From Squalus acanthias (taxonomy: Eukaryota), in NCBI GenBank assembly GCA_030390025.1, contig CM059449.1, forward strand, positions 14,942,001 through 15,006,000: a stretch of DNA of 64,000 nucleotides, in the 5' to 3' direction. Below the pieces are notes generated by a model. The model was not told the origin of the DNA, did no database searches, and saw nothing but the letters and a program-made list of their open reading frames with translations. Numbering within the stretch: the first letter of the stretch is position 1; the number at the start of each line of letters is the position of its first letter. Positions 3,187 through 62,848 of this stretch are shown piece by piece. Both the position numbers and the translations under genes were made by a program.

Positions 3187-3221
<35 letters not shown>

Positions 3222-3469: not shown

Positions 3470-6400
3470 ATGAATCCGAACATGACGATCTGGGCGGCGA
3501 TAATTGTATCTGGTAAGGTGTTTTAACTCGTTTTAATCTATGTTCAAGCCTATTGTCCACTATTAGATACCAGGAGGACTCCGTGCAATATAATCATGGG
3601 AAAGTTCACTCATTTTGGAAAATAGTATAAAAATGACAGCTGGAAATATCAGTGGAGGAACGCCAATGTGCTCTCCCGTTCGCCCATCACCCCCTGTGCT
3701 CGCTGACCGACATTGGCCCCCGGTTAAGCAACGCCTCGATTTTAAAATTCTCATCCTTGTTTTCAAATCCCTCCATGGCCTCGCTCCTCCCTATCTCTGT
3801 AATCTCCTTCAGCCCCGCAACCCTCCGAGATAACTGCAGTCTTCCAATTCTGTCCTCTTGAGCATCCCCGATTATAATCGCTCCACCATTGGCGGCCGTG
3901 CCTTCAGCTGTCTGGGCCCTAAGCTCTGGAATTCCCTGCCTTAACCTCTCCGCCTCTCTACCTCTCTTCCTTTAAGACGCTCCTTAAAACCTACCCCTTT
4001 GACCAAACTTTTGGTCACCTACCCTAATTTCTCCTTATGTGGCTGGGTGTCAAATTTTGTCTTCTAACACTCCTGTGAAGGGCCTTGTGACGTTTTATTA
4101 CATGAAAGGCGCTGTATAAATACAAGTTGGTGTTGTTGTTGCTGCTATTCCATTCCTGTCTGCTATATTTTAAATCGGTATTTTAATACATATACCACAA
4201 ACGGGTTAACGTCTCCTTTTAAAGTAGAGGACAGAGGGCAGGAACGCGGGGACGGCTTATCCCTAAAGTAGCCAACAGTAATTTTGGAGCTGTGTTATGT
4301 TTAATACCAGATCACATTCTATAACCGCTGTGCCGAAAGGATATTTCAGGATTTGTTTACCACCATTAGACCGACCCTAAGCGGCACTATTTTCATATTT
4401 ACAGACTGCAATGTTATAAAACAACGTGTCTGCTCCGCTCCGGCGTCATAACCGCCCGTGGAATGTATGCTCCGATATCCTTAAACCCTCAATACTAAAT
4501 ATCAGTAGCATCGTCACTTAAATTTATATGTTTCTCTATGCATTTCCATTTGAACCTAAATATTCACTAAACGGAGGGATGCTGGCTCTGGTTAGTCATT
4601 ATCAACATCACTCTCGGGCCAGGGACAGTAGGGTTCGAATGCAGAGTAAGGCTGTTTTGCCCTAAAGCTGACTTTGTAAAGTCACAACATTTAAAGTACC
4701 TAAATAGACTACAGTTCTAACAGCTACCCCATATTTACAACGTTACCTCTATACATTCTGGTATCCAGAGCATGTTAGGTAGCCCGTGTCTGTGTTATCA
4801 TAGAATCATAGAACCATAGAATGGTTACAGCACAGAAGGTGGACATTCGGCCCGTCGAGCCCGTGCCGGCTCACTCATAGAAACATAGAAAATATAGAAA
4901 CATAGAAAAATAGGGGCAGGAGTAGCCCATTCGGCCCTTCGAGCCTGCTCCGCCATTCAATATGATCATGGCTGATCCTCTATCTCAATACCATATTCCT
5001 GCTCTCTCCCAATACCCCTTGATGCCTTTTGTGTCTAGAAATCTATCTATCTCCTTCTTAAATATATTCAGTGACTTGGCCTCCACAGCCTTCTGTGGTA
5101 GAGAATTCCACAGGTTCACCACCTTCTGAGTGAAGACATTTCTCCCCATCTCAGTCCTAAATGTCCTACCCCGTATCCTGAGACTGTGATCCCTCGTTCG
5201 AGACCCCCCAGCCAGGGGAAACATCCTCCCTGCATCCAGTCTGTCTAGCCCTGTCAGAATTGTATACGTTTCAATGAGATTCCCCGTCATTCTTTAAAAC
5301 TCTAGTGAATACAGGCCTAGTCGACCCAATCTCTCCTCATACGACAGTCCTGCCATCCCAGGAGTCTGGTGAACCTTCGCTGCACTCCCTCTATGGCAAG
5401 TATATCCTTTCTTAGGTAAGTAGACCAAAACTGCACACAGTACTCCAGGTGTGGTCTCACCAAGGCCCTGTATAACTGTAGTAAGACATCCTTGCTCCTG
5501 TACTCAAATCCTCTTGCAATGAAGGCCAACATACCATTTGCCTTCCTAACTGCTTGCTGCACCTGCAAGTTTGCTTTCAATGACTGGTGTACAAGGACAG
5601 CCTGGAACCTTTGTACATCAACATTTCCCAATCTATCACCATTTAAATAATACTCTACTTTTCTGTTTTTCCTACCGAAGTAGATAACTTCACATTTATC
5701 CACGTTATACTGGATCTATCATGTATTTGCCCACTCACTCAACTTGTCTAAATCGACTTGAAGCCACTTTGCATCCTCCTCACAACTCACAATCCCACCT
5801 AATTTCGTGTTGTCAGCAAACTTGGAAATATTACATTTGGTTCCCTCATCCAAATCATTGATATATATTGTGAATATCTGGGGCCCAAGCACTGATCCCT
5901 GCGGTACCCCACTAGTCACCGCCTGCCACCCCGAAAAAGACCCATTTGTTCCTACTCTCTGTTTCCTGTCTGTTAACCAATTTTCAATCCATGCCAGTGT
6001 ATTACCCCCAATCCCATGTGCTTTAATTTTGCACACTAACCTCTTAAGTGGGGCTTTATCAAAGGACTTCTGAAAATCCAAATACACCACATCCACTGGT
6101 TCTCCCTCATCTATTCTATCAGTTACATCCTCAAAAAACTCCAGTAGGTTTGTTAAACACAATTTCCCTTTCATAATTTCATGTTGACTTTGTCTAATCC
6201 CGTTGATATTTTCTAAGTGTCCTGTTAATACATCCTTTATAATAAACTCTAGCATTTTCCCTACTATAGATGTTAGGCTAACCGGTCTGTAGTTCCCTGT
6301 TTTCTCTATCCCTCCTTTTTTAAATAGTGGGGTTACATTTGCCACCCTCCAATCTGCAGGAGCTGTTCCATAATCTATAGAATTTTGGAAGATGACAACC

Positions 6401-9400
6401 AATGCATCCACTATTTCCATGGCAACCTCTTTTAGTACTCTGGGATGCAGCTTATCAGGCCCTGGGGATTTATCAGCTTTCAGTCCCATTAATTTCTGCA
6501 GCACTATTTTTTTTAACTAAAACTAATTTCCTTTAATTCCTCCTTCTCACTAGACCCTTGGTTTCCTCGCATTTCTGGGAAGTTATTTGTGTCCTCTTCC
6601 GTGAAGACAGAACCAAAGTATCTGTTTAATTGCTCATCCATTTCCTTGTTCCCCATTATAAATTCTCCCGTTTCTGGCTGTAAGGGACAAAAGCAGCTCA
6701 GCTAGTCCCACTCCCCCGCCCTTTCCCCTTAGCCCTGCAATTTTTTTTCCTTCAGGCACTTATCCAATTCCCTTTTGAAAGCTTGATTGGCGCTCCATCC
6801 ACCACCTCAAACATTCACTCCCTCCACCACCGGCGTACTGTGGCTGCAGTGTGCACCATCTACAAGATGCACTGCAGCAACTCGCCAAGGCTTCTTCGGC
6901 AGTACCTCCCGAACCAACGTCCTCAGCAGCCCCATGGGAACAGCACCACCTCCAAGTTCCCCTCCAAGTTACACACCATCCTGACTTGGAAGTGTATCGC
7001 CATTCCTTCATTGTCGCTGGGTGAAAATCCTGTAACACCCTCCCTAACAGCACTGTGGCCGTATCTACACCACACGGACTGCAGGGGTTCAAGAAGGTGG
7101 CTCACCACCACCTTCGCAAGGGCAATTAGGGATGGGCAATAAATGCTGGCCTTGCCAGCAAAGCCCACATCCCATAAATGAATTAAAAAAAATCTGCCTC
7201 CACCATCCTTTCAGGCAGTACATTCCAGATCATAACAACTCGCTGCGTAAAAATGTTTTCCTCATGTCGCCTTTGGTTCTTCTGCCAATCAATTTAAATC
7301 TTTGTCCTCTGGTTCTCGACCCTTCCGCCAATGGGAACAGTTTCTATCTATCTACTCTGTCTAGACCCCTCATGATTTTGAAAAACTCTATCAAATCTCC
7401 TCTCAACCTTCTCTGCTCTAAGAAGAACAACCCCAGCTTCTCCAGTGTATTCACGTAACTGAAGTCCCTCATCCCTGGAACCATTCTTGTAAATCTGAAT
7501 TTAGAGTTCATTTGTCCTGGTAATTTATTAATTATTGTAAAGGTTTAGTGATGTCAATAACACACAGGGGCGGGTATGCCCCAGGGCCTGCGCCATCGGC
7601 CAGAACTTGCGTGCTATCAAACCAAATGGTGGTAAAACCAAAGATACTGAAATGGCAGAGGATTTGGAGGTTAATTGTCCACACCTACTGGCTGGGGTGG
7701 AACCCGATGCGGAATATTAATGGAATGTTTTTAGAACAATATTAAACAGGTGGAAGTCAGGTAAGTGCCCAAAGTCATAAAAAAGGGAGTGTGGTAAGAG
7801 AAAAACAAGATGGCTGCCTGGTCAAGTACAAAGGCAAATAAGACGTAAGTAAAAATGTGTTTTTGAATATAAATTAAAGGCACCTAATGCACAACAAGAC
7901 AAAGGCAGGTACCGGGACCAGGGTAGAAAAGCCATTAAAACAGCTAAACGATTAATGGAAAAGCGGATGGTGGACAACTGTAGTAGTCGTGGAAAATGTC
8001 ATTCATCTATGTGAAGAGTCAAAGGATCGTCAAAGACTATATTGGGCTTCTGAAAGATTCACAAGAACAGGTTAGAAAGGTCTCTCAGGGTCCGGCGGAG
8101 ATACTAAATTAATACTTTGCACCAGTCTTCACTCAGACACGGCTAAATGGCGTTGTTAGCAATAACGTTGTTAATATTGATACCGTTTTAGACTGCAATG
8201 GAACTGAATATCGGGCGCTGCATATAACGGGCGGCCGATCCGATACCGCCCGTTTTGCGCCACAATCTGAGATGGATTTCTCGGCCAATGAAACAGAATA
8301 TCAGGTGCTGATGGCCGATTTGATACCGCCCGCTTTGCGTTGCCGCCCAAGATGAATTTCTAGCAACGCGTTTCCCATATTTCTGTTTTTATTTCAGATT
8401 TTTATCATTGAAGGTTTTTTTTAAAGTCAGATATTTTCTATTTTATAGCAGGACAAACGTTTGGAAACATCACAGTGATCCAAAGCCCAGCCTCGATTAT
8501 TACAACTGAAGGCGAGACTGTGGTCCTAAACTGCACGTATAATGGGCCAACCGGGATAGCCGCATACAAATGGTATCGAAACATCCAAGGTGGGACTGAA
8601 GTGTCCAACAAAACATCACAGTACACAGGACGTGTGATTCTGGCGGATCAGGAGGCCTTCTTAGCAAGCAAAGACGCTTCACTACAAATAGCAGACACAA
8701 AGCTGTACGATTCAGGAACCTATTATTGCAAAGTGGAACACGTGGCATGTGGGGAAGCATATGGCCCGGGGACAAAACTTACTGTAACAAGTGAGTATCG
8801 CTCCCTAGTTTTGGCGAAACAATTTGTAAGTGTGAAAGTGACCCCGATCATAATGAAATGCATGATTACACCCAGGTCTTTTTAATTGGAAATAGCTTTG
8901 TGATTTTTAAATAGAAAAGAAAAAGAAAGACTTGCATTTATATAGCGCTTTCCACGACCACCGACGTCCAAAGCGCTTTACAGCCAATGAAGTACTTTTT
9001 TTTGAAGCGGAGTCACTGTTGTATTGTAGGAAACGCGGCAGCCAATTTGCGCACAGCAAGCTCCCACAAACAGCAATGTGATAATGATCAGGTAATCTGT
9101 TTTAGTGATGTTGATTGAGGGATAAATATTGGCCCAGGACACCAGGGAGAACGCCCCTGCTCTTCTTTGAAATAGTGCTATTGGATCTTCTATGTCCACC
9201 TGAGAGAGCAGACGGGGTCCTCGGTTTAACATCGCATCCGAAAGACGGTACCTCCGACAGTGCAGCGCTCCCTCAGTACTCCACTGAAGTGTCAGCCTAG
9301 ATTTTTGTGCTGAAGTCTCTGGAGTGAGAATATGAATCCACAATTTTCTGACTCAGAGGTGAGGGTGCTACCAACTGAGCCACTGGCTGACCTAAAATGC

Positions 9401-12400
9401 TAAAACTATTTGTTACACCAACACCTACAGTGCAGAAGCGTCCCAACATCGGACTGAGGAAGATGGAAGACGGGATGAATTAAGCAGTATTGAAGGACTA
9501 CTTCCAAGCTTGGGCTTTAACAGTCTGTCGATTGTAGGGGAAAATGGACTGGATGGAGTGAGCAGTTCCTCATTTGTAACGTCTTGCATAGGAATGAGGT
9601 GGATTAGGGCACTATGGATGGAGATTTGATTTCAACGCAGTTACACTGGAGGGAAGAGCCATAGCTGATAGGCAGACGTGCTTGGAGCTTAGAAGAAAGA
9701 AGGAGAAAGTTAATCACCATGGCAGTCGAGATAAATATAAAATAAAGTTGGAAAGTAGAGAGAGGTGTTAGAGGCCATTGTGGGGATGGGGTTGGTGAAG
9801 AATGGCGTATCTGACGACAAGCTTCTTGCATGTTAAATTGTTCATCTGCAGAAAGAAATGTGCCAGTAAAGCGGCGGACAGGGAACCGCAGAGGAAATCC
9901 ACATTAGTGATGATACCATGCAGACATGCGGCGCAGGGTCCGGATCACTTTGCAGATTGACAAGGGATTACCAAGAAAAAGGAATATTACAATTACCTTG
10001 AGTTAAAACATAGATCATGGGAACCGGTGAACTAGAGCAATGTTAGGAAGCAAACGAGAGTTAGAAAAAGCGCGAGACTTGCAAGCAGCGACAGTTAACT
10101 AAATAAGTACTTTATTGGCTTAGAGAAAGAACTGAGCTAAAAATAGCGTTTATATAACCTCATGACGTTGATCAGAAACGGCTCAAAGCGCCTCACGCCC
10201 GATGAGTTACTTAGAAGTGCAGTGGTTGCTGTGACGTAGGGACACCCTGCAGCCAATCTGCGCACAGCAAAAAAAAACCCCGAACTGCGATGAGATGGGA
10301 CTTTTGCCATTAGCTGAGGAAGGCTAGGAACCTCCTTCTAATCGAGCAGTGCTACAAACAGGCAGTGAATCAAGGCAATGCCCCTAGTGTAGGGCCTTCA
10401 TGTTCAATGTCTCATCCCAAGGATACCACCTGCGACAGTGCACCTCGCCTTGATTACCACATGCCAGTGTAAACCCACATAATATCCTTCCGTTCCGATG
10501 TTTTGGCCCAAACATTCATGACTCGGAGGCAAGCTGACAAATAGAACAACTGACAAATGGACAGCAATGCGATTTCTGGGGAATGAACAAAGAAAATAGC
10601 TCTTTCAAGTCTTCAAGTTAAATTAATTATACGAACTTCATTAACGTTTTTTCAAACAGTGCGAGTTCGATATTCACCAAATCACAGAAATGACAGAGAA
10701 GCATGGCTTGTAGAAGTACAAAGAATAATTATTTTTTTCAAATCTCCTCAGCTCGAGGATACGCCACGAGGAACTCGCGGATTCTTTGGTACATCAGAAC
10801 GTGGATAATCGTTGCACTCATCCTTACGGGGATCGTCCTCTCTCAGCGCATCTGCCCCATCAGAGGTACTGACATTGAAGTTAAATTTACAGCATTTCAC
10901 ATACATAAAAGATGAAATCATAGAATTGCACTTGCAATGCGCACATCCTCATTTTATATATAAGTATTGATTACAGAAGTAGATGCTTTCAGAATATCAA
11001 ACTATGCCTTAAATTCAGTTTAATCTTTTTTTTCTCTCTTTCTACTGTCAGTTCATTGCACATTTGGCCCACTTCCAGAGTCAAGGTTGGTAAATGGAAA
11101 CATTACCGATTTTAAGTGAAGTCTATTTCATCCCTCAAACACTTGCAAGTGATTAATTTATCTTCTTCTGGTTTTTCCCCCGGAAGGGTCGAGTCCATCT
11201 ACGAAGACATTGATTTTACTGGTGGGTGACCAATCCTCAGGTCAAGTTTGCTTCCTTTAGCTTTCGTTAAAGTTACTACATTTTGCTTCGTTACACCAGG
11301 AACGTCTCCTTGATTTATTGTTCCCTTCAATGTTTTTGTATCTGTTACTAAACGCTAATTATATACAGGAATAAGTTTGGAGTTGAGACACATTTTCGGG
11401 GAGGCGGCATTTCTCTGTATTTAATCCGCTGCATATCCGCCCTCTGAATAATTGATGGGTCATTGCAGAGTGTTACTTTTTGCCTACCTATTCTACACCT
11501 GGCATGACAATATTTATAGGAACGTAGGAACAGAATGAGGCCATTCAGCCCCCCAGCCCATTCTGCCATTCAATTAGATCGTGGCTTATCTGTATCATAA
11601 CCCCATTTACCCGCCTTGGTTCCGTAACCCTTAATACCCTTACCCAACAATAATCTATCAATCTCAGTACTGACGTTTTCAATTGACCCCCCAGTCTCAG
11701 CAGCTTTTTGGGGGAGAGAGTTCCAGATTTCCACTATCGTTTGTGTGAAGAAGTGCTTCCTGACATCACCCCTGAACGGCCTAGCTCTAATTTTAAGGTT
11801 ATGCCCCCTTGTTCTGGACTCCACCACCAGAGGGAATAGTTTATCTCTATCTATCCTATCAAATACTTTAATAATCTTAAACACCTCGATGAAATCACCC
11901 CTTATTCTTCTATATTCAAGGGAATAGAAGCCTAGTCTAAGCAACCTGTCCTCATAATTTAACCCTTTTTGCGCCGGTATTATTCTGGTCAATCTGCGCT
12001 GCTCCCCCTCCAAGGCCGATATATCCTTCCTGAGGTGCGGTGCCCAGATCTGAATACAGTTCTCCTGATGGGGTCTAACCACAGCTCTGTACAGCCCAGA
12101 TTTTGTGCTCCAGTCTCTGGGATGGGAATTAAACCCACAACCTCCTGACTCAGAGGCGAGAGGGCTACCAACTGAGCCTTGGCTGAGACTGTGAGCAGAG
12201 ATATAGGTCTTTATGTATTGTCGTATGAGGAGAGATTGGGTCGACTAGGCCTGTATTCACTAGAGTTTAAAAGAATGAGAGGGGACCTAATTGAAACGTA
12301 TAACATTCTGACAGGGCTAGACAGACTGGATGCAGGGAGGATGTTTCCCCTGGCTGGGGGTCTAGAACGAGGGGTCACCGTCTCAGGATATGGGGTAGGA

Positions 12401-14162: not shown

Positions 14163-17100
14163 TGTGGCGGATCGCCACCTAAAACGGGCATAATCCACTC
14201 TTCCGTCTGTGGACAAATTTCCAGCCCCTTCCCTTTAAGGCAGAAGGGGGCGGGGCCTCAGGTTTTACCCAGAGAATTCTGGGAGTTTACCCAGAGAATT
14301 CTGGGAGCAGCTTTCTCAGACATTTTGTTTTGACATGCAGTGAATAAAAGCTTCCTGTTTTCCACATATGGATTCAGCCTCCATTCGTGTTTCGCGGCAG
14401 CCTCAACATTGGTGACCCCGACGCTCAGAACGTATTCCGAGCACTGCAATGGTGGACACGAACGCAGTTTCCGTGAAACTGCCGGAGTTTTGGGAAAACC
14501 AGCCCGAAGCCTGGTTTCTCCAAGCTGAATCTCGCTTCCGGCTGCGAAATATCACCACAGAGGGGACGAAGTACGACTACCTCGTCACATCACTCAGCAG
14601 CATCACAGTTTCCAAGGTTTGGACAACGCTGCAGAACCCACCAGAGGAAGGCAAGTACGCACATCTCAGAACAGCGCTCCTTAAAAAATTTACGGCCTCG
14701 GCATATCAGCGAAACTGCCACCTCCTCGACCTTCCAGGCCTCGGTGATGCCTCACCATCAGACCTCCTCTCCCACATGCTCTCCCTCACCGACGAGAGCC
14801 CACCCGGATCCCTCTTCCGCACGCTGTTCATCCGCCAGCTCCCTCTCAGCATCCGCCCAGCGATCGTGGCGTCCGGCCTCACGAACCTGGAAGCCCTGGC
14901 CGATGAGGCCGACAAGCTGCTGTCCGCTCACTCCAGCCGTGACATCACTCCGGACCTGGCAGCCAATGCCTGGGCGCGCCCCTCACCATCCAGCCCGCGG
15001 CCACAAGGGCCTGTCACCAGGCCCACGGGGCCTTCACACCCCACTAACCCGGGCCACTGTTACTACCATGCACGGTTCGGCGCCAGGGCACAACGGTGCA
15101 CACCTCCTTGCTCTTTCAAGTCCGCCCCCGTTCCAGCCCCCGCGATGGCTGTGGGCCACACGGGCTCCCTGCTGTTCGTCACGGATGACAAAACCGGCCG
15201 CCGGTTCCTGTGTGACACTAGGGCTCAGCACAGCATCATCCCCGCCTCCTCCCTCGAAATCCAAAAGGGCGAACGAGGACCGGCGCTGGCTGCTGCTAAC
15301 GGCTCGGAAATCTGGACGTATGGCACCCGGACAGTCACCCTCGACCTCGCTGGTCACCGCTACTGATGGGAGTTCATCACTGCCAAGGTGCTCTCCCCCC
15401 TCATCGGCGCAGATTTACTGTGTGCCCACGGCTTACTGGTAGACATCCCTCGTCACCGCCTCGTGGACATGAACACCATGTCCCCCATCCTGGGTGCCAT
15501 GGCCCCCCGTCAACCCGCCGACATGGCGTCACAGTGCCATGCCCGGGCCACGGATGACTACTCGGCACTCCTGGCCGAATTCCCAGCCCTTACCAATCCG
15601 ACCTTCTCCGCGGAGGCCGCCAAACACAGGGTGGAACACTTCATCCCCACCACAGGCCCCCCAGTGTACACCCACGCCCGCAGGCTGGACCCGGCCAAAC
15701 TGGAGATCGCGCGGACCGAATTTGCCACCATGGAACAGCTCGGCATCATCCGCCGCTCCAACAGTCCCTGGGCCTCCCCACTCCACATCGCCCCCAAACC
15801 AGGCGGGGGTTAGCGCCCCTGCGGGGATTACCGCCGCCTCAATGACGCCACCACCCCTGATTGGTACACCGTGCCGCACATTCAGGACTTCTCGACTAGA
15901 CTGGCCGGCCGCTCAGTCTTTTCCAAGGTCGACCTGGTGCGCGGCTACCACCAAGTCCCCGTCCACCCCGCAGACGTCCCCAAGACGGCCGTAATCACCC
16001 CTTCGGCCTGTTCGAGTTCCTGCAGATGCCCTTCGGCCTCAAAAACGCGGCCCAGGCATTCCAACGGCTCATGGACTCGGTCCTTCGGGACCTGAAGTTC
16101 CTGTTCGTCTAACTGGACGACATCCTGGTAGCCAGTTCCTCCAAGCAGGAACACCTTGAACACCTTCGCATCCTGTTCGGACGCCTCAGCGACCACGGGC
16201 TCATCCTCAGCCCAGCCAAATGCCAGTTCGGCCTGGACAAGATCGACTTCCTCGGCCACCACATCACTCATGCTGGGGCCATTCCCCTGCCCACCAAGGT
16301 GCAGGCCGTCCAACAATTTCCTCGCCCCACCACCATCAAAGGCCTCCAGGAGTTCCTCAGGATGGTGAATTTCTATAACCGCTTCATCCCCAAAGCGGAG
16401 TCCCTCATGAGGCCTCTGTATGAAGCCCTCCAGGGCAGGAGCGGCAAGATGGCGGTCGAATGGACGGCAGATGCGTCCGCCGCCTTCGATTCCACCAAGA
16501 CCGCGCTCGCCAACGCCACCCTGCTCGTGCACCCACGGCCCAATGCCAGGGTAGCGCTCACCACGGATGCCTCCGACCACGCGGTCGGCGCCGTGTATGA
16601 GCAGTGGGTCGACAGCGCCTGGCAACCACTTGCCTTCTTCAGCCGCCAACTACGCCCCCCCGGAGGTCAAGTACAGCACCTTCGACCGCGAGCTCCTCGC
16701 GCTGTTCCTGGCGGTCCGCCATTTCCGGTTTTTTGCTTGAGGGCCACCCCTTCACTGCGTTTGTCGACCACAAGCCCCTGACATTCGCAATGGCAAAGAC
16801 AACCCACCCCTGGTTCGCCAGGCAGCAGCGCCAGCTCGCGGCAGTGTCCGAATTCACCACGGACATCCAACACGTCTCCGGCCGAGACAATGTGGTAGCC
16901 GACTGCCTCTCCTGCCCCGCCATCCACGCCGCACACCTAGCAGTCGACTATGCTCAACTTGAAGCAGACCAGATCACCGACCCGGATCTGCTCTCCGCAC
17001 CCACCAACCTACCAGGGCTACGCCTGACCGACGTCGCCTGTGGCCCGACCGCAGTCACGGTCAAGTGCGATTTATCCCTATGTCAACCTCGGCCCGTCGT

Positions 17101-18527
17101 CCCAGCGTCCTGGCGCCGCCGGATATTCGACATTCTCCACAACCTCTCCCACCCCGGCGCCCGCGCATCCATCAAATTGGTAGCCAACCGCTTTGTCTGG
17201 CGCGGCCTTCGCAAGGATGTGCTTACTTGGGCCAACTCCTGCCTATCCTGTCAACGTGCCAAGGTACAGCAACACACGAAAGCACCCCTCGAGGAGTTTA
17301 CCGTCCCCTCGCGGAGATTCGACCACATCCACGTGGACATCGTCGGGCCCCTGCCGCCATCGCAAGGCCACACGCACTTGCTGACCATTGTTGACCGCAC
17401 CACACGCTGGCCTGAGGCAATTCCACTGACCTCTACCACCACCGCCGACATCGCCAGAGCCTTCGTCAGCACCTGGGTCGCACGGTTCGGCGTCCCCTCC
17501 GACATGACGTCGGACAGAGGTCCGCAATTTACCTCTGAACTCTGGACCGCCGTTGCACGCAATCTCGGGGTGACCATCCACCGCACCACAGCGTACCACC
17601 CCCAAGCCAACGGACTGTGTGAGCGGTTCCACAGATCCTTGAAGGCATCTCTTTGAGCCAGCCTCCAAGATGGTGCCTGGACTGACCGACTTCCGCGGGT
17701 CCTCCTTGGCCTGTGCACCGCGGTTAAAGAAGACCTCCACGCATCGGCAGCAGAGCTCGTGTACGGTCAGCCGCTGCGCGTACCCGGCGAGTTCCTGCCC
17801 ACCGCCACGACACCCTGGTCAGCCGACCAGAACGCCACAACTTCGCCTCACTGGCGCTGCAGTTCACCCCGGTGCCCATTGCCCGACACGGTGAATCCAT
17901 GTCACACGTCCCACTAAGCCTGCACCAGGCACGGTTTGTTTTCATCCGGCACGACGCCCACCGCGGACCCCTTCAACCCCCGTATGACGGGCCCTACAAG
18001 GTGCTACAGGCTGGGGACAAATTTTTCACCCTGCAAGTGGGCGACAGGACCGAAAAAGTGTCGGTGGACCGACTCAAGCCAGCACACTCGGAGCCCGGGG
18101 AGCAGGTCCCTGTAGCTCGTCCACCTCCACGCGGCCGACCTGCCCTCAAGCCGGTTCACCCGGCTGCTCCACGCCCGGCCGTCCCACGTCCACCGGCGTC
18201 CTACAAGAGCCGCTCCGGCCGGCCCATCAGACCGCCGCACCGTCTCGTCCACACCTCCTAAGCGGATTCTGGGGGGAGCTGTGTGGCGGATCGCCACCTA
18301 AAACGGGCATAATCCACTCTTCCATCTGTGGACAAATTTCCAGCCCCTTCCCTTTAAGGCAGAAGGGGGCGGGGCCTCAGGTTTTACCCAGAGAATTCTG
18401 GGAGTTTACCCAGTGAATTCTGGGAGCAGCTTTCTCAGACATTTTGTTTTGCCATGCAGTGAATAAAAGCTTCTTGTTTTCCACAAATGGATTCAGCCTC
18501 CATTCGTGTTTCGCGGCAGCCTCAACA
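14163..18527 (+). mobile_element. Full-length Ty3/Gypsy LTR retrotransposon, CsRn1/Kabuki/Boudicca lineage, copy A (inactivated)
   Basis: TG..CA 246-bp LTRs at 14163-14408 and 18282-18527 (5 mismatches by eye); TSD CCCT at 14159-62 and 18528-31; PBS TGGTGACCCCGACG at 14410 (tRNA-Trp); PPT at 18271-18281. gag has CYYHARFGARAQRCTPPC, followed by PR, RT, RH and IN (HHCC, DDE, GPY). Confidence 0.95.
14449..18261 (+). pseudogene. gag-pol of Gypsy copy A, disrupted
   Basis: Stops at 15364-66 and 15811-13, RT YLDD changed to *LDD, protease DTG changed to DTR, and several frameshifts. Confidence 0.9.
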
Positions 18528-36353: not shown

Positions 36354-36550
36354 GATCACTGCTGGAAGCACCACTACAGTTCAAAACTCACCCTTCACAG
36401 CCGCAACTGAAGGGCATACTCCAGCCTTTAGGGGTCGGAAGATGCAAATGGCGCGAATGCATTAAAAACATAAGATACAGGACATGGCGGACGGATGTTA
36501 CGCGAAGTACAGAGGATTTAATCAGAAATGTTGATGTTTTGCTTAGTTAA
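36354..36550 (+). pseudogene. Probable decayed NCR3-family V exon
   Basis: Pyrimidine-tract acceptor ...tatcttgacag. One frame gives TAGSTTTVQNSPFTAATEGHT (cf. [21 protein letters not shown]); another gives GVGRCKW and STEDLIRNVDVLL (cf. GIGSYTW and SEEDFRQRRDASI). Frameshifted and cut by a LINE at 36550. Confidence 0.45.
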
Positions 36551-46300: not shown

Positions 46301-47680
46301 ATCCGTGGCCTGGGCGTGGCACTGTGACGCCATGTCGGTGGGTTGACGGGGGGCCATGGCGCCCAGGATGGGGGACATGGTGTTCATGTCCACGAGGCGG
46401 TGTCGAGGGATGTCTACCAGTAGGCCGTGGGCGCACAGGAAATCCGCGCCGATGAGAGGGGAGAGCACCTTGGCAGTGATGAACTCCCATCGGTAGCGGT
46501 GACCAGCGAGGTCGAGGGTGACTGTGCGGGTGCCGTGCGTCCGGATGTCTGAGCCGTTAGCAGCAGCCAGCGCCGGTCCTCGTTTGCCCTTTTGGATGTC
46601 GAGGGAGGAGGCCGGGATGATGTTGTGCTGAGCTCCAGTGTCGCACAGGAACCGACGGCCGGTTTTGTCATCCATGACGTACAGCAGGGGGCCCGCGTGG
46701 CCCACGGCCATCGTGGGGGCTGGTACGGGGGCAGACTTGAAAGAGCAGGGAGGTGTGCAACATTGTGCCCTGGCGCCGAACCGTGCATGGTAGTAAAAGT
46801 GGCCCGGGTTAGTGGGGCGCGAAGGCCCCGTGAGCCCGGTGGCTGGGCCTTGTGGCCACGTGGTGGCCGGTGAGGGGCACGCCCAGGCAGTAGCTGCCAG
46901 GTCCGGAGTGACGTCGCGGCTGGAGTGAGCGGACAGCAGCTTGTCGACCTCATTGGCCAGGGCTTCCAGGTCCGTGAGGCCGGACACCACAATCGCTGGG
47001 CAGATGCTGAGAGGTAGCTGGCGGATGAACAGCGTGCGGAAGAGGGATCCGGGTGGGGTCTCGTCGGTGAGGGAGAGCATGTGGGAGAGGAGGTCTGACA
47101 GTGAGGCATCACCAAGGCCTGGAAGGTCGAGGAGGTGGTAGTTTCGCTGGTATGTCGAGGCCGTAAATTTTTTAAGGAGCGCAGCCTTTAGATGTGCATA
47201 CTTGTCCCCCTCTGGTGGGTTCTGCAGCACTGTCCAGACCTTCGTAACTGTGGAGCTACCGAGTGATGTGACGAGGTAGTCGTACTTCGTCCCATCTGTG
47301 GTGATTTGTTGCAGCCGGAATCGGGACTCAGCTTGGAGAAACCAGGCTTCGGGCTGGTTTTCCCAAAACTCTGGCAGTTTCACGGAAACTGCATTTGTGT
47401 CCGCCATTGCAGTGCTCGGAATACGTTCTGAGCGTCGGGGTCACCAATGTTGTGGTTGCCGCGAAACACGAATTAAGGCCGAGTCCATGTGTGGAACACA
47501 AAGCTTTTAATTACATCTGCCTGGTAAAATGGCTGCTAACCAACTGATCTGAAAACTCTGAGGCCACACTCACTCCTTTTCTCCTGCCTTAAAGGCAGCA
47601 TGCCTTAAAGGCAAGGTGCCCGATTTATTGTCCATGGACGGAAAAGTGGATTGCGCCCGTTTAGGTGGCGATCCAACACA
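43344..47680 (-). mobile_element. Full-length CsRn1-lineage Gypsy element, copy B (inactivated)
   Basis: 233-bp LTRs at 47448-47680 and 43344-43576 (about 10 mismatches); TSD GTAT at 43340-43 and 47681-84; tRNA-Trp PBS at 47433-47446; PPT at 43577-43587. Confidence 0.95.
43597..47407 (-). pseudogene. gag-pol of Gypsy copy B
   Basis: Single gag-PR-RT frame of 671 aa (DTG, YLDD) ends at a TGG-to-TGA stop at 45392-94; later frameshifts in IN. Confidence 0.9.
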
Positions 47681-51125: not shown

Positions 51126-52311
51126 TGCTTGATTTTCCTGCTGGGGGCATCCAAAAACCAGACTGACAATTCTACCAGTCGGTCTTTATTACAGTGGGAG
51201 GTCAGTGCTGTTTCTGATCTATTAATGGTTTGCAGTCATGTTTTATTCAACACCATGGATTTCCTTGGCATATTCAACAGATTGAATAGGGCCCAAATCA
51301 ATAATATCTTACGATTAATGGGATGCTATCTGTGATAGTAAGACACGGTGTGCAATCTGTGATCAAGATACTATTTTCTAGCAAGAAGATTGATCATATT
51401 ATGTTTTATTAATTAATTGAATCATCATTGAAACTTTTAACAAACTGTTATTTACAGATTTAATGCTTAAACAACTTTGCCAGAGACATCTTTGCAAACA
51501 CCCCGAAACAGATTTGATGGATTAGATAGTTTGCAGGAGTCATGTGAAATAGCACAATCTTTACACTTTCCTCGTGTGGAGCTGTTTATACCGAATTCCT
51601 CATTGCAGTCCCTTCCAAATGCAGGTCCCATATTTTATGTTGTTTTCTTCTTCACTGTTGCATATGGTTAAAGTGTATTTTCATTCTGTTTATGTAAAAG
51701 TAATAAAACAAATTACAAACTTCACCATGGAACGAAATGAAGGAAAATTTGTGAAAAATCAGAAGATCAACGCATCTATTAAAGTTGAATGAAACACAGC
51801 TGGCAAAATTCTTACCAAACATTAGACATGATTACACAAGAGCTTGAAAGTTAATATAAGGGACCGATTCTCCTATGCACTATGCTGAACGAAATTGTAT
51901 TTATACAGAATCGGTTTACTCTTTTGTTACACATAATGCTCCCCAGGTGTTATGTTATAATTCAAACGCTTAAAGCACTTCTATCAAATTTATGTGCCTG
52001 CTACTTAAGGGAGGCACAGGACCTTGAGCGTAAATGGATTAAAACATCTCTCTTAGAGAGATTTCATACCGAATGGTTTTAAGTGTTGATACTTCAATAA
52101 CGACGTACAATTTCTAGGCTTATAACTTAGAAATATAGGTAAGGTTTACATTTTCTCTTTATTAAAGCAAAGGAAAGCATAAAGCCAACGATTAATTCAG
52201 AAATCAGAATCCATCCGGAGCAGCACATGATTTTTTCTGGTCACCCAATCACAGGACAAATATTATTGCCTTTGAGAAAGTTAACAGGGGCAAACAAGAA
52301 ATATGGAGGGT

Positions 52312-52497: not shown

Positions 52498-52509
52498 CCC
52501 CCCCCGCCA

Positions 52510-54851: not shown

Positions 54852-55110
54852 ATAAAAACAGAAAACTGCTGGAAATACTCAGCAGGTCAGCCAGCATCTG
54901 TGGAGAGAGAAACAGAGTTAACGTTTCAGGTCGATGACCCTTCGTCAGAAATGGAAAAAGCTGCTGGAGATCGAGCAGGTTTTTAAATAAGTGCAGGGGC
55001 AGGGAAAGGGGGGAGGGGAAGAAAGAACAAAAGGGAAGGTCTGTGAGAGGATGGAAGGCAGGAGAGATTAAGAGAGATTAAGAGATGGTGCAAGGCAAAA
55101 GGAGAGTAGT
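54852..55110 (-). mobile_element. Penelope tail with hammerhead motif (54916-54952)
   Basis: Minus strand CTGACGA-A-GGGTC-ATC-GACCT-GAAACGTT-AACT. Confidence 0.75.
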
Positions 55111-56117
55111 AGAGTTCGGCAAGTGTTGGGGAGAGGTGGTTCAGCGCCACTGGGTTAGGGATGGAGCTTTAGCTAGATTTCGCGTACACATTGGATCTTC
55201 ATCGACCATGTAATAGAAATGGCATGCGGGTGCTGATTACAGGATCGGCTTGTTAAATTCACGGTCGATGTTCACATATGTACAATGGCCACTTGGCCGA
55301 GTTACTGGAGGTCGGCCATCACTCATTGAGCGGTATGCAAATCAGAAGAGTCTTCAGGAAAAGGGAAACAGTTCAGGAACAAACTGAATAATATGTTATC
55401 AAGGAAAGTTATAGAGTTTGGCCATGTTTTTCTTAGGAGGAGAGGAGATTTCAAGAGAATGGCGCTCATGTTTGCGAGATTATGAAGCGGATTGGCCATG
55501 CTCGTCCCTTTGCTAGAGGTGGTCTCACACCTGGTTGCCTCAGTACAATTGTATTCTGACTGACAGCTTGGTCCCCAAGCTCCACTGCTGCTGTCACATC
55601 CAAGGGTACCGCGAACTGTTTTGCTTAGGTGAGACTGCCGTACTGTAAGACCACTGTTAAATGCGCTTCCAGAGAGATAGTGGATTAAGCGATTGGATGA
55701 GAAGGCTTTTAGCTGGCTTGGTCCTCAGTTCTGTAATTCCCTCCCTAAGCCTCTCTACCTCGCTATTTCTCCTTTAAGACGCTCCTTAAAGCCTACCTCT
55801 GTCTTAATATGTGGCTTGGTGTCAAATTTTGATGGATAATCGCTCCTGTGAAGCGGTTTGGGACGTTTTACTATATTAAAGGCGCTATATAAATGCAAGT
55901 AGTTGTTGTTAGGTTGGATTTGTCTCACAATAGGGGACAGTGGCTCGGTTTGCCTAATGGACTTCCCTTTTTCCAAAAATGTATAAGCTTTTATAGTGAG
56001 TTCAAAAGTAGCGTTTATCACTCTGAGGAACTTTTCGTTTTTACCTGACATGGGGGTTTGTGCAGAAACAATAAATACATTCTATGTCTGAATTTCAGTA
56101 ACTGTTAGTTTACATAC

Positions 56118-59100
56118 CACACCGTTAAAATCTACGGAGCCAACCATATCTATAATATCTGAAAACAAAGAGAACATTTGGAAGTGAACAATTGGCTGTG
56201 GGGCGTGGTTACATGCCGGTTCTAGGAAGCAACCTTTCAGGAAATCGAAAATATGGCTCGGGACGAAGAGTAAAATTATCGCACAAAATTTAATGGCAGC
56301 ATGAAAACATTCACTGTGCATAATGTTTATAGCCACACGCATGTAGACTGGTTACACAGCAAATCCGACCGTTAATATAGCGAACAGGAAAAGTACCTTA
56401 TTTTTTCATTCGAAAGGAGACATAAGAACCTGAGAAGATAAGAAATAGGAGCAGGAGTCGGCCATTTGGCCCTTCGAGCCTGCTCCGCCATTCAATAAGA
56501 TCATGGCTGATCTTCTACCGCATCTCCACTTTCCTGCACTATCCCCATATCCCTTGATTCCCTTAATATTCAAAAATCTATCGATCTCTGCCTTGAATAT
56601 ACTCAACGACTGAGCCTCCACAGCCCTCTGGGGTAGAGAATTCCAAAGATTCACCACCCTCTGAGTGAAGAAATTTCTCCTCAACTCAGTATTAAATGGC
56701 TGACCCCTTATTCTGAGACTGTGACCACTGGTTCTAGACTCCCCAGCCAGGGGAAACATCCTCCCTGCATCTACCCTGTCAAGCCCCGTAAGAATTTGTA
56801 TGTTTCGATGAGATCACCTCTCATTCTTCTCAACTCTAGAAAATATAGGCCTAGTCTACTCAATCTGTCCTCATAGGGCAATCCCCCCATCCCAGGGACC
56901 AGTCTGGTGAACCTTCGTTGCACTCCCTCTATGGCGAGTATATCCTTGAGTATTGCGTGCAGTTTTGGTCGCCTTATCTGAGGAAGGATGTTCTTGCCGT
57001 GGAGGGAGTGCAGCGAGGATTCACCAGACTGATACCTGGGATGGCAGGAATGACATATGAAGAGAGATTGGGACGATTGGGCTTGTATTCTCGAGAGTTT
57101 AGAAGAATGAGAGGGGATCTCATTGAAACTTATAAAATTCTAAAAGGGCTAGACAGACTAGATGCAGGAAGGATGTTCCCGATGGCGGGGGAGTCCAGAA
57201 CCAGGGGTCAGAGTCTAAGGATAAGGGGTAATCCATTTTGGACTGAGATGAGGAGGAATTTCTTCACCCAGAGAGTGGTGAACCTCTGGAATTCTCTACC
57301 ACAGAAGGCAGTTGAGGCCAATTCATTAAATATATTCAAGAAGGAGTTAGATATATTTCTTAAGGCTAAAGGGATCAAGGGATATGGGGAGAAAGCAGGG
57401 ACAGGGTACTGAATTTGGATGATCAGCCATGATCGCATTGAATGGCGGAGCAGGCTCGAGGGGCCGAATGGCCTACTCCTGCTCCTATCTTCTATGTTTC
57501 TATGTCTATGTTTCTATCCTTCCTTAGGTAAGGAGACCAAAACTGTACATAATACTCCAGGTGTGGTCTCACCAGGGCCCAATATAATTGCTGTAAGACG
57601 TCTTTACTCTTGTACTCAAATCCTCTTGTAATAAAGGCCAACCTACCATTTGCTTTCCCAATTGCTTGCTGGACCTGCTAGTTAACTTTCAGTGATTCTC
57701 ATACCAGAGACGGTACAAGAATAGAAGTACACTCTAATATATGCGAGTTTTTTTCACATTAATTATAGCCATAGGGTTATTGTTACTTATATTAAGGGAA
57801 TGGCCTTTATCGCGGTTTAATGCTAGCCGGAGTAATGAATGTCGCATAAATGAAAGGCTAATATAGACAATAGTAGCTTGTAAGTAAGACACTGTAACAA
57901 TCCTTACCATGCGGGGGGATGTCGGCATAGACCTCTTCATCACTGAACCACAAAGGGAGGAAGAAGCAAATCGTTACATGTTTAAAACACGCGGTACGTG
58001 TCACATGAAAATAAAGGCAGCAAAATGTCACAGTGATATCTACGCACCATTGCAAAGGTGGATCGAATTCTGTGGAAAGACAAAGAACAAACAAAGAATA
58101 TCTGTTATATCTGAGAACGTATTTAGCACAACTGCATTCTTAACTACGTCTCGGTTTTTATCATTTGTCAATAATAATTAATAAATGTTTATCTACGGGC
58201 AGTGGGAGTGGGAAGGGTGCACTGCAGTCGGCTCCCATTTCATGGTGCGAGCCAGTCTCATTGCAACGCTAACTGCCGGGTGAGGGTGCCCTTTATCCCT
58301 GTCTAGAAGGGCAATGTGTAAAGATAGTTTAGGACATCCAGCATCTAGCGGGCGTGGTTGAACTGAATATAATGAAGCATTAAACGGATGATGTGTAGCT
58401 GCCCCAACAAATCAAAAGCGCTGTCATACTGATCCAATAAAAGGTATTCTTTAGAGATTTTGGCTAAAGTATAGCGTTAGTACGGTGCTGTACCTGAATG
58501 GCACTCCAGCAGTGCTCGCTGCTGATACCGTGGGTAATTTTAACCTAAGGCCGGGCGGGATCGGGCGGAAGTCCGGTTTTACATATTACCCTCCACTGAC
58601 TTCACTGGAGAGTAAAATCGAGCTGTGTGTAATGCTGGCGTTGCACCCGGTCTCTTAAATTTCCCGACGTCCGTGTTCGGTTAAAATTGCCCCGTGTCCA
58701 ACAACACAAGGTGAAGAATATTACATCTCCAACAAGCGAGAATCTAACCACCGCCCCTTGACGTTCAATGGCATTACCAGCGCCGAATCCCCCACCATCA
58801 ACATCCTGGGGGTTCAGCATTGACAAGAAACTTAACTGGACCAGCTATATAAATACTGTGGCTACAAGAGCAGGTCAGAGGTTGGGTATTCTGTGACGAG
58901 TATCTCATCGCCTGACTCCCCAAAGCCTTTCCACTATCTGTAAGGCACAAGTCAGGAGTGTGATGGAATACTCTCCACTTGCCTGGATGAGTGCAGCCCC
59001 AGCAACACTCAAGAAGCTCGACACCATCCAAGACAAATTAGCCTGCTTGATTGGCACCCCATCCCCATCTTAAACATTCACTCCCTCCACCACTGGCGTA

Positions 59101-62100
59101 CCGTGGCTGCAGTGTGCACCATCTACAAGATGCACTGCAGCAACTCGCCAAGGATTCTTCGGCAACACTTCCCAAACCCGTGACCTTTTCCACCTAGAAG
59201 GACAAGGGCAACAGGCGCATGGGAACACCATCACCTGCAAGTTCCCCTCCAAGTCACACACCATCCTGACTTGGAAATATAACGCCGTTCCTTCATCGTC
59301 CCTGGGTCAAAATCCAGGAACTCCCTTCCTAAAGCACTGTGGGAGTAACATTCATCACACGGACTGCAGCGGTTCAAGAAGGCGGCTCGCCACCACCTTC
59401 TCAAGGGCAATTAGGGATGGGCAATAAATGCTGGTTTTGCCATGTACGCCCACATCCCAAGAACAAATATTTTAAAATATTAGCAAACAGCAAGCTACTG
59501 AGTTTGTTCCTTGGCAATTCGCACAAGTATAATACCGAAGCCTCGTTGAATCTTGTTAAATGATTCTTTAATCGGTGGTGCTCACCATCCACGTTAGATT
59601 CATCATAGATCGGCTCATTCCTTCGGGAGAACAAACAAAGAAGAGAAAATGAGTGTTACTGCAGAGTTACAGAGCAATTAGAATAAAAGATGCAGGAAAC
59701 GTTAACTCTGAGATTTACCGACCTTCCAAGTGGTGGAGGAACATCTGCAAAAGTAAAAGTTCACCATGAAAGCTTTGTAACGTTAATGCAATCCGTCTGA
59801 AAACAGTTCGACTACAAGAAACTGTTTCCACTGGCGGGAGGGTCGGTAACCAGAGGACACAGATTTAAGATCATTGGCAAAAGTGCGAGAGGGGAGTTAA
59901 GGAGAATTTTTTATGCAGTGAGTTGTTATGGTACGGAAAGCACGACCTGAAAAGATGGTGGAAGCAGATCCCCCGCCCCCCAGATGTTTTCTCCCGATCC
60001 CCCCTTTCCCCCAGGCTCCCGCCCGATGTTCTCTCCCTTCTCCTCTGATGCTCCGGTTCCGATATTCTCTCCCTGTCCCCCCGTCCGCAACCCCCACCCA
60101 AGGCTCCTGCCCCGATCTTCTCTCCCTCACCTCCTCGATGCTCCGGCCCCGATGCTTCCCTCCCTCCCTCCTGCCCAATCCTCCTCCGGCCCCCGACAAC
60201 CCAACCTCACCTCCGGCCCGCACCTGATCCCTCCCCACCTCACAGCTCCCAGCCAGCCTCTCCACCCTGCACCCAACCAGGCTCCCGATTAAAAATCCGG
60301 CCATGGTAGCACCCAATCACCAGCCCGAGTCAGACCAGTTAGTTCGGCATATCTCACGGATCCAACCATGGGATCTCTCTGGCACTGGTGACTCAGGAGT
60401 ACACCAGGCAGTGCATCTAGGCTCTGAAGCAACCGGTCCATTGAGGAGCAGGTTAACTGCTCTGCAGGTGCGCCACTCACCAGCTGGATTAATTTCATCA
60501 TAGGCGGAACCAGCGATGTCCATCCAGGGTCTGGGAAAGAGAAAAACAAACAATCACATAGCTGAAACAAAAATCCAGCTGATTAAAAAAATGCTTCACC
60601 CTCATAACCACCAACCAACCTTTGTGCTTGCGGAGCTAACTCTGTGGGAATAAAAGTCGAAAATTAAGGTCTATCCTTTGATGCAAACAAGACATTTGAT
60701 ACAGTGAAATGAGATTAAAATTATATGTGCCTCTTATGTCCATCCAGCAATAATAATCAGCGAAACTACTGAAGTCCTTTACCAACAATAATTGCTAATT
60801 TGAACTTTTTTTTTAAAGGACTATTTAAAAAATCGACCAGTTATATACATATAACTAATACTTACCATTAGAAAGAATGTTACTGCAAGGCGCAATATTG
60901 CTTTGGGATCAAAACGGAAAAGGGAAAAAGATGTCAGTGGATTGAATATCTAAATGCACATCAATTAAATAGAGATATAAAGAGAAGAGTGATCTGCACT
61001 TCAATATTCACTGACCGTTGTAACCGTGCAGGTTCGAGACCTGCGGGAATAAAAGGTGATGGAGAAAGTGTTACAACTTTACTACGGGCGGACGGTAGCA
61101 TCGTGGTTATAAGAACATAAGAAATAGGAGCAGGAGTAGGCCATTCGGCCCTTCAAGCCTGCTCCGCCATTCAGTAAGATCATGGCTGATCTTCTCCCTC
61201 ATCTCCATCTCCCAGCACTATCCACATATCCCTTGATTCCCTTAGAATCCAAAAATCTATCGATCTCTGTCTTGAATATACTCAATGACTGAGCCTCCAC
61301 AGCCCTCTGGGGTAGAGAATTCCAAGATTCACCACCCTCTGAGTGAAGAAATTTCTCCTCACCGCAGGCCTAAATGGCTGACCCCTTATTCTGAGACTGT
61401 AACCCTTAGCTCTAGACTCGCCAGCCAGGGGGAAACATCCCTCAGCATCGACCCTGTTATGTTACTAGACTAGTAATCCAGAGGCCTGGGCTAATGATCC
61501 GAATACATGGGCTCAAATCCCAGCACTGGCAGCTGGGGAATTTAAATTCAAATAATTAAATAAATCTGGAATAAAAAGCTATTATCAGTAATGGTGACCA
61601 TGAAACTACCGGATTGTCATAAAAATCCATCTGGTTCACTAATGTCTGGCCTATATGAGCCATAGCAATGTGGTTGACTCTGAAATGGCCTAGCAAGCCA
61701 CCACCAAGGTGGCTCACCACCACCTCCTCGAGGGCAATTAGGGATGGGCAATGAATGAATAAAAAATAAATAAACTTTCCTTATTTGAAAGAACAGCATC
61801 CCCAACCACAATCCGGTCAAGATCAGCTGACGGTTTCAACTGAACGAGACCAGTATCGTTTATGTAATAAACCGACTCAATCCCTAACCATCTGAAAATG
61901 TCTGGTATTAAATATAATCATTTAATATCATTTTCTGTGCCTGAACTACAAGCAGCCCACGAATGTAAAAATAAGAGCCTAAAAATTGCCATTAATAACT
62001 TTTACTGAGGGACACCTGCCGCATTATGGAATGTGGAATAGTTCGGATTATACTTTAACAATGTAAATTGAACAATTTGTTCATCCATTAGTAATGCGGA

Positions 62101-62848
62101 AAGATAAATATCACACTAACCCACCAAAGGTACATTTCCCACTGGCATTTCATAGCCTATTCAAGCAAAACGTGTTCAGAGTGGTAAAACCGAGCGATTT
62201 GAACGAGTCACTTACGATCTAAAGGGATGCCTTCATAAAATCGATTATTCATTCTAAATCTCAAAGAAAAAAGGCGCATTATCGAACAGTACACACATGT
62301 TATATACGTCAATTTTGGAAAAAAGTTTTTTGTGGGTAGGGGGGGTGGAGATTTACCAACCTCTGAAATTGTAGGCGGCGAACTGTAGGAATCAAAAGTA
62401 ACAATAAAAGTAACAATTTGAATATAAACATCACTAAAAAGAACCAAGATTATCTGGCCATTATCACATTGTTGTTTGTGGGATCTTGCAGTGCGCAAAT
62501 TGGCTACCGCGTTTCCTGCATCACAACAGTGACTACACTTCAAAAAAGCACTTCATTGACTGTAAAGCGTTCTGAGGGCGTGAAAGGCGCTGTGTGAATG
62601 CAAGACTTTCTTTACAACAACATCAAAGGCGAACCAAATGTCACTGGCGTTTGAATGCATGCATCTACTTTATGGTTATATTCGGAAGCGCAATATTGCT
62701 CTTTCAAATAGTTACCTTTTGTCAGACCATAACCTGCGGAGAACAGGAGGAAAGCGACTAAAACTCCGGCAGCGGTGTACAACAAGCTGTTGCTTAGCGA
62801 CGATTCGCTGGTTGGCTCTGTGGTCGGTTGTACTGGGAGCCGGCCGAG
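56118..62848 (-). CDS. Gene 3 (partial): type I membrane receptor, uncharged TM and multi-tyrosine tail encoded by micro-exon pairs; probable NCR3-family paralog
   Basis: TM 62848(or 62832)-62716 (...SLLYTAAGVLVAFLLFSAGYGLTK), then 62382-62361, 62253-62216, 61040-61016, 60900-60866, 60641-60620, 60530-60481, 59744-59723, 59620-59586, 58069-58048, 57942-57908 and probably 56158-56118. All are GT-AG and splice into one open frame. Ectodomain lies outside the window; 3' end unresolved. Confidence 0.8.
56421..57700 (-). mobile_element. CR1 3' fragment with an opposite-strand CR1 nested at 56946-57515
   Basis: ORFs 56406-56759 (-) and 56918-57412 (+). Confidence 0.87.
58532..58692. mobile_element. 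PIF/Harbinger-like MITE
   Basis: 14-bp TIRs GGGTAATTTTAACC / GGTTAAAATTGCCC (1 mismatch); CGT on both flanks (3-bp TSD candidate). Confidence 0.6.
58722..59478 (+). mobile_element. Crack/L2-group LINE 3' fragment
   Basis: Same family as 39790-40595. Confidence 0.85.
59970..60300. repeat. C-rich low-complexity tract with ccgat-containing imperfect repeats
   Basis: Directly visible; lies in a gene 3 intron. Confidence 0.6.
61085..61772 (+). mobile_element. tRNA-headed SINE split by a CR1 tail (61110-61455, -)
   Basis: SINE reads gtggttat|gttatgttactagac with GTTAT duplicated at the junction. Confidence 0.75.

Follow-up and report, generated by a model that had tools for sequence, protein, structure and literature searches.

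A multigene NCR3/NKp30-family cluster in Squalus acanthias with predicted activating and inhibitory members that share a V exon

RESULTS

Three NKp30-like genes in the window

Our analysis concerns a 64,000 bp stretch of the 3.7 Gb Squalus acanthias genome (contig CM059449.1, hereafter C26, positions 14,942,001–15,006,000), which we call the window. It holds three genes, here named genes 1, 2, and 3, whose variable (V) domains resemble that of NKp30, the NCR3 product, and the named proteins nearest to them come from sharks. A large share of the window looks by eye like repeat sequence, and the whole of it is repeated ~455 kb away, at 15.399–15.460 Mb, with 97–99% identity. An original prediction, made from the letters alone, had given genes 1 and 2 an NKp30-like V exon and a transmembrane (TM) Arg, and gene 3 a TM segment without a charged residue and a tyrosine-rich tail; all of these were found at the exons described below. 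All gene models were made by joining exons by coordinate, from splice consensus and homology. Three contig sets, possibly RNA, covered little but repeats at gene 3 and are evidence neither way.

Gene 2 lies on the minus strand and forms a complete three-exon model of 183 residues. Its 52 nt leader exon (33236–33287) is of the activating-type leader class, which also occurs in the bamboo shark record GCC38509, and is followed by a variable-joining (VJ) exon (31538–31879) and by a last exon (30338–30495) that encodes the stalk, the TM segment with the motif LWCVRA (Arg codon at 30415), and a short tail. Poly-A-like signals are present ~210 nt downstream of this last exon.

Gene 1, on the plus strand, comprises a leader exon (3470–3512) with a phase 1 donor, an unsplit VJ-type immunoglobulin (Ig) exon (8449–8790) whose best PDB match is human NKp30, and a stalk/TM exon (10752–10915) encoding LWYIRT, with the Arg codon at 10796. 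Read-through of the TM donor, which follows position 10865, leads to a stop at 10913–10915 and a protein of 182 residues whose tail has no tyrosine. The earlier description of gene 1 as a plain activating gene did not survive, however, because the gene has a tyrosine module of its own. This consists of a 34 nt mini-exon, phase 1 to 2 (11052–11085), and a tyrosine exon (11187–11229) encoding SIYEDI, which fits the consensus of an immunoreceptor tyrosine-based inhibitory motif (ITIM); the latter exon has a donor after 11221 or, alternatively, reads through to a stop at 11227–11229. Spliced into both small exons, gene 1 would encode 191 residues, with SIYEDI near the C-terminal end. The module appears homologous to module 4 of gene 3 (see below), the alignment of the two beating 300 of 300 shuffles, whereas its alignments to the other five modules are not clearly significant (12, 168, 14, 119, and 36 of 300). 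As we read the sequence, gene 1 is not simply activating, but carries an optional ITIM-like exon pair. A comparison over 198 amino acids found no full-length relative of gene 1 among 195 candidates, which is weak evidence. A run of ~35 G residues lies upstream of the gene 1 leader, at 3187–3221.

Gene 3 lies on the minus strand and extends beyond the window. The original prediction had suggested that a V exon and leader might be found on this strand past position 64000, and both were found there (locus L031): an NKp30-type VJ exon at window-equivalent positions 65542–65201, 1.2 kb past the end, and a leader at 67740–67698, 3.7 kb past it. An unrelated ectodomain of the SRCR or CD300 type, which had been named as the outcome that would speak against the family assignment, was looked for and rejected, the V domain matching NKp30 by both sequence and predicted model. 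The uncharged TM exon (62716–62848) has its in-frame start at 62832; the strong acceptor at 62848 was rejected as the productive one, since it shifts the frame, and hydrophobic stretches within repeats were rejected as TM exons.

The gene 3 tail is encoded by 12 small exons, comprising five two-exon modules, a 41 nt exon, and a last exon, and runs down to position 51635. We define a tail module as two exons no more than 200 nt apart, the first of 22–34 nt and phase 1 to 2, the second of 35–50 nt and phase 2 to 1. Module 1 (62216–62382; exons 62382–62361 and 62253–62216) encodes RFYEGI; module 2 (60866–61040; 61040–61016 and 60900–60866) has no tyrosine, as in horn shark; module 3 (60481–60641; 60641–60620 and 60530–60481) encodes the ITIM-consensus sequence SAYDEI; module 4 (59586–59744; 59744–59723 and 59620–59586) encodes PIYDES; and module 5 (57908–58069; 58069–58048 and 57942–57908) encodes EVYADI. 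The 41 nt exon, phase 1 to 0, follows at 56118–56158 and matches in size and phase its counterpart in the ITIM-tailed genes described below, each of which holds one such two-exon module. We placed the last exon at 51635–51685 because the end of horn shark isoform X4 matches there; the last exon that is more common among horn shark isoforms (X1–X3) was rejected, having only weak matches with stops in repeat-like sequence. Six modules were found in the window (five in gene 3 and one in gene 1, or seven acceptor variants), while shuffles (n = 60) gave 0.15 on average and never more than 1. Because of this excess, and because the tail recurs in the horn shark proteins XP_067865363/4 (identity to isoform X4 at 187 of 300 residues), the modules are not due to chance.

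From the copy of gene 3 in the duplicated stretch, an intact model of 299 residues can be built, with five tyrosines in the tail. Two differences from this duplicate mark the window copy: 16 nt upstream of its in-frame TM acceptor lies an additional AG, and a stop (51670–51668) comes before the last tyrosine, so that the final YATV, retained in the duplicate, is lost. The window copy is thus probably crippled and the duplicate whole, and the lesions may reflect paralogue damage, a null allele, or sequence errors. Gene 3 appears to represent an older, multi-tyrosine, adaptor-independent subfamily, and its direction of signalling is uncertain.

Membership of the NCR3/NKp30 family

The V domains of the three genes are each encoded by an unsplit VJ exon and have the Cys-Trp-Cys pattern and a GxGT end. 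With genes 1, 2, and 3 alike, and with a further subfamily of the cluster termed L4, the top four PDB sequences are NKp30, which outranks T-cell receptor (TCR), Ig, SIRP, pIgR, and all other PDB chains; in a profile search, two four-domain diabodies alone rank above it. The predicted model of the gene 3 V domain is good (predicted local distance difference test, pLDDT, 93) and has the extra helix of the NKp30-type fold, at residues 68–74. NKp30 takes Foldseek ranks 1–4 with this model and, in a structural comparison by Z score, ranks 1–3 (Z 16.7–17.4, root-mean-square deviation 1.9–2.8, 107–113 aligned residues; next best Z 14.8). The gene 2 model is poor (pLDDT 69), so that the fold match rests on the gene 3 model.

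A tree of V domains had been proposed as a check. The tree has 39 rows, none of them human, CD28, or CD300, and its TCR/Ig outgroups were labelled by inspection from genome stretches. In it, gene 2 groups with nurse shark NCR3 (QTT61898) at 100/99, gene 3 groups with the horn shark gene and one of its own paralogues at 94/80, and the NCR3-like set is separated from TCR/Ig at 99/99. The sequence and fold matches support the assignment of the three genes to the NCR3/NKp30 family.

Compared at the 11 residues of NKp30 that contact B7-H6, as given in Table II of PMC3135353, gene 1 is identical at 4, gene 2 at 5, and gene 3 at 3. Within the gene 2 subfamily, 5 of the 13 most variable positions fall in residues 66–73, a stretch with the equivalents of Ser82 and Leu86, a pattern that is suggestive only. 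Positive selection on gene-2-type V exons was not shown (pN/pS 0.66, interval 0.41–1.05, 22 exons). The genome also holds two zeta-family adaptor exons with a TM Cys and Asp.

Gene 2 shares its V exon with ITIM-tailed neighbours

Genes 1, 2, and 3 had been proposed to form a paired activating and adaptor-independent receptor set. Since their V domains are only 46–51% identical, genes 1 and 2 do not form a classical pair with gene 3; genes 2 and 3 belong to separate subfamilies, each with its own orthologues in other sharks. Pairing did emerge elsewhere in the cluster, between gene 2 and its neighbours. The gene 2 subfamily comprises 27 V exons, with 85–100% protein identity to gene 2, of which 5 are followed by an Arg TM exon, 20 (at 17 loci) by a neutral TM exon, and 2 by neither. 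All five Arg genes have complete models. Seventeen last exons with two ITIMs (LQYATL and VLYASV) were found, both motifs being in frame in 15, and of the neutral-TM loci, six give a complete model that uses the locus's own leader, while a further two do so by way of an upstream L4 leader and V exon. As judged from these models, the actual pair is gene 2 and the 17 neutral-TM neighbour loci, most of them with a predicted ITIM tail.

The two classes resemble each other in the V exon and nowhere else. Between gene 2 and all three of the inhibitory genes tested, the alignable DNA is limited to 354–359 nt at 93–95.5% identity, which corresponds to the V exon and ~15 nt of its acceptor (31536–31894 in gene 2), while leader, introns, and TM exon do not align. 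By contrast, the whole of gene 2 aligns with a fellow Arg gene, leader, introns, and TM exon included. Its leader and TM exons, compared with those of one Arg gene, are 97.5–98% alike. The flanks are class-specific right from the exon borders in the five Arg and five ITIM genes shown, whereas third codon positions within the V exon are 93–96% identical between classes. Moreover, the gene 2 V exon is closer to that of an ITIM gene (97.6%) than to those of three distant Arg genes (95.0–95.6%). Both leader classes exist in other sharks: that of gene 2 is represented in the bamboo shark record, and records from horn, nurse, and cat shark have the second class. The bamboo shark V domain with the gene-2-type leader nevertheless groups with a bamboo shark ITIM gene (one cross-species pair), and its grouping with the S. 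acanthias Arg genes was rejected (approximately unbiased test, p-AU 1e-4). The shared V exon therefore likely reflects gene conversion between genes of predicted opposing function, and not birth and death alone. Homogenisation limited to the ligand-binding exon has been termed "merohomogenization" in the paired receptors NKG2, Ly49, and PIR (PMC3210942).

The cluster and its genomic setting

In a search of the genome with the gene 1 V exon, in which 150 of 724 candidates were scored, the 70 best of 109 matches all fall on C26, between 13.47 and 17.14 Mb. Within the 1.275 Mb of cluster sequence covered, we counted 72 NKp30-like V exons, 62 open and 10 broken, which fall into at least 10 divergent subfamilies, several with orthologues in other sharks. 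Database annotation misses such genes or names them wrongly, several shark NCR3-like records being labelled SIRP-, turtle-, or pIgR-like. The catshark record XP_038671257 looks like an annotation fusion of two adjacent NCR3-like genes.

Synteny with major histocompatibility complex (MHC) genes had been suggested as a further check, and profile matches to the AIF1 family (14.13 Mb) and the BAT2_N family (14.21 Mb) indeed lie within the V-exon cluster. The cluster thus surrounds AIF1- and PRRC2-type genes, assigned at family level (AIF1 or AIF1L; PRRC2A or B). In the supplement of PMC10751288, white shark NCR3 genes adjoin AIF1 and PRRC2A, and five NCR3 rows are given for white shark and three for sawfish; the same source reports that elasmobranch class Ib genes are confined to the MHC by mapping. 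Class I alpha-2 matches are also present on C26, at 30.7–38.4 Mb; the best class I matches and both class II alpha matches are on other contigs, and the MHC_II_beta profile had no match anywhere in the genome searched. These results support a position of MHC class III type for the cluster.

Relic, retroelements, and rearranged neighbours

The relic, for which the original prediction had given no coordinates, is a decayed V exon on the plus strand at approximately 36354–36550 (nhmmer E 0.0064). It has several indels, is closest to the gene 3 subfamily, and aligns with a score of 86 as against a shuffle maximum of 55 (n = 500). The window also contains two related long terminal repeat (LTR) retroelements of ~4.35 kb, at 14163–18527 (plus strand; LTRs 98% identical) and 43344–47680 (minus strand; LTRs 96% identical), which by eye we take to be Ty3/Gypsy-like. 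The former is absent from the duplicate of the window and so represents either a recent insertion or variation between alleles.

Elsewhere in the cluster, 13 of the 17 last exons with ITIMs face a Lys-TM L4 exon tail to tail, no more than 6.5 kb away (C26 15.02–15.68 and 17.04–17.05 Mb). We read this arrangement as a repeated cassette of predicted activating and inhibitory genes, the L4 side of which is mostly decayed; leader and V exon are in frame in only 3 of 10 plus-strand L4 copies. Four inhibitory genes (C26 15084668–15091252, 15225597–15232180, 15756068–15762981, and 17132092–17139008) seem to join an L4 leader and V exon to a gene-2-type V exon, giving two-domain, two-subfamily receptors. 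At 15587639–15605680 and 15673084–15691490, gene 3 tail exons from module 2 onward follow an L4 V and TM exon in the same direction; these chimeras are rearranged, have a stop in the leader, and are probably dead. Two genes with four V exons are present at 14770387–14777742 and 14886524–14899400, the second having a neutral TM segment and two ITIM-like motifs in its last exon, and matching horn shark records. L4-type V exons that are 77% identical to a Lys-TM L4 copy precede neutral TM exons at 13472656 and 13630939 and possibly represent a second, older pair; an ITIM exon was not found near them in the stretches searched.

DISCUSSION

A predicted activating gene among predicted inhibitory neighbours

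We consider it probable that the window belongs to a large NCR3/NKp30 cluster that adjoins genes of the AIF1 and PRRC2 types and in which a predicted activating gene, gene 2, shares a converted V exon with predicted inhibitory, ITIM-tailed neighbours. The Arg of human NKp30 couples to CD3zeta or FcRgamma (PMC6514059). Judging from that receptor and from the two zeta-family adaptor exons of this genome, the membrane Arg of gene 2 would pair with the Asp in a dimer of CD3zeta or FcRgamma and would signal through immunoreceptor tyrosine-based activation motifs. The ITIM-tailed neighbours would recruit SHP-1/2 through their two ITIMs, and, if they and gene 2 bind the same ligand, the cell could weigh one signal against the other, with conversion keeping the ligand specificities matched. 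For gene 1, splicing might decide whether a plain Arg receptor is made or one that also carries an ITIM-like motif, and gene 3 may dock SH2 proteins on its five tyrosines without an adaptor, most likely dampening signalling.

Several observations weigh against this reading or parts of it. The split of the NCR3-like set from SIRP in the V tree is weak (70/42). A complete two-ITIM model is present at only 8 of the 17 neutral-TM loci. A TM segment is lacking in the bamboo shark record GCC38509, whose assignment to the activating class depends on its leader. Monophyly of the five Arg-gene V exons was not rejected (p-AU 0.46), and the pattern could therefore go back to no more than one or two ancient exchanges. 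Many cluster copies form near-identical pairs and, given the 97–99% repeat of the window, haplotype duplication in the assembly may inflate the counts. Gene 1 has a weak TM donor (score −0.2) and no close orthologue in the tree, and only two of the five gene 3 tyrosines have inhibitory-like motifs, one of them loose.

Evolution of the set by birth and death had been predicted, and turnover is indeed supported. On that process alone, the inhibitory V exon would have been shuffled once or twice onto another scaffold, with no continuing conversion or functional pairing; the Arg V exons may be a single clade, as noted, and exon shuffling is common in the cluster, where the V exons of two subfamilies occur on one ITIM scaffold and gene 3 tails occur after L4 exons. 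We nevertheless hold this account to be quite unlikely, given the closeness of the gene 2 V exon to an ITIM gene and the grouping of the two bamboo shark V domains by species; conversion seems to have acted besides. It is also rather improbable that the cluster is mostly decaying or falsely duplicated, with only a few genes in working order, as in the annotation of other sharks. The broken V exons, the 9 incomplete neutral-TM loci, the L4 copies that are out of frame, and the few NCR3 rows in the white shark and sawfish supplement agree with such decay, but 62 V exons are open, all five Arg genes are complete, the divergent subfamilies include several with shark orthologues, and database annotation misses or misnames genes of this kind.

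The direction of signalling of the tyrosine tails can likewise be read in two ways. The acidic motifs of the gene 3 tail and of the extra gene 1 exon could be activating or serve as a scaffold, binding the SH2 domains of Src- or Syk-family kinases and not phosphatases. The tails of CD6 and WC1 are models for tyrosine tails that bind SH2 kinases, Src SH2 prefers acidic YxxI, and three of the five gene 3 tyrosines (YEGI, YDES, and YADI) do not have the hydrophobic residue or Ser at −2 that defines an ITIM. We regard this alternative as doubtful, because SAYDEI matches the ITIM consensus, the gene 3 TM segment is uncharged, and the module, the 41 nt exon, and the phase-0 last exon are common to gene 3 and the two-ITIM genes.

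No clear shark orthologues of the KIR and Ly49 families of mammals are known to us, which leaves the balance between killer-cell activation and inhibition in sharks to be explained. A paired NKp30 family inside the MHC supplies named candidate receptors, adaptors, and tail motifs for this question, and would extend the homogenisation of ligand exons in paired receptors to cartilaginous fish. A bolder and tentative idea, which we think possible but on balance unlikely, is that shark NKp30 is the equivalent of KIR and Ly49: dozens of MHC-encoded activating and inhibitory receptors whose binding exons would have been converted repeatedly between opposing partners, from a time before the divergence of the shark orders, so as to follow a rapidly changing ligand that is either self or mimicked by a pathogen, and whose tails would derive from a mobile two-exon tyrosine module, human NKp30 being the last activating survivor.

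Comparison with known receptor systems

The NCR3 multigene family of sharks is said to be expanded and MHC-linked, reportedly by Flajnik in 2012 and by Kinlein et al. in 2021. The nurse shark members (QTT61898, QTT61901, and QTT61904) resemble the present genes in their unsplit VJ exon, MHC linkage, and divergent subtypes, and among the nurse shark proteins on deposit are already forms with a neutral TM segment and a tyrosine tail, as well as one with a TM Lys. As the family, its MHC linkage, and both tail types are thus on record, what is gained here is the scale (72 V exons as against eight deposited nurse shark genes, by the accession range in PMC12227049), together with the pairing and the signal of conversion. 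No account of pairing or conversion among shark NCR3 genes, of sharing between Arg and ITIM genes limited to the V exon, or of a modular tail was found in the literature searched, which left out the main shark NCR3 family papers. The horn shark NCR3-like records XP_067865360–69 represent the gene 3 orthologue, matching its tail exon by exon and including a TM-less isoform, and differ from the window copy in the out-of-frame acceptor and last-exon stop of the latter. ITIM-like tails also occur on lungfish and newt NCR3-like records, so that inhibitory relatives of NKp30 are not unique to sharks.

The combination predicted for spliced gene 1, a charged TM residue with an ITIM-like tail, is known from KIR2DL4. 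NKp44 has it as well (PMC6514059), but it is an unrelated gene, and the gene 1 motif is on optional exons. Human NKp30 (PDB 3NOI and 3PV6) resembles the window genes in its fold, VJ exon, MHC class III-type neighbourhood, and, for genes 1 and 2, membrane Arg. It differs in being a single activating gene whose tail, as described in PMC6514059, has no signalling motifs, and genes 1–3 share only 3–5 of its 11 B7-H6 contacts (PMC3135353, Table II). NKG2A/C, Ly49, and PIR belong to another protein family; they resemble the shark set in having opposing tails on near-identical binding exons, a limit to the similarity at the exon borders, and grouping by species (PMC3210942), while the shark set lies inside the MHC of a cartilaginous fish and would, as we infer, share a common ligand.

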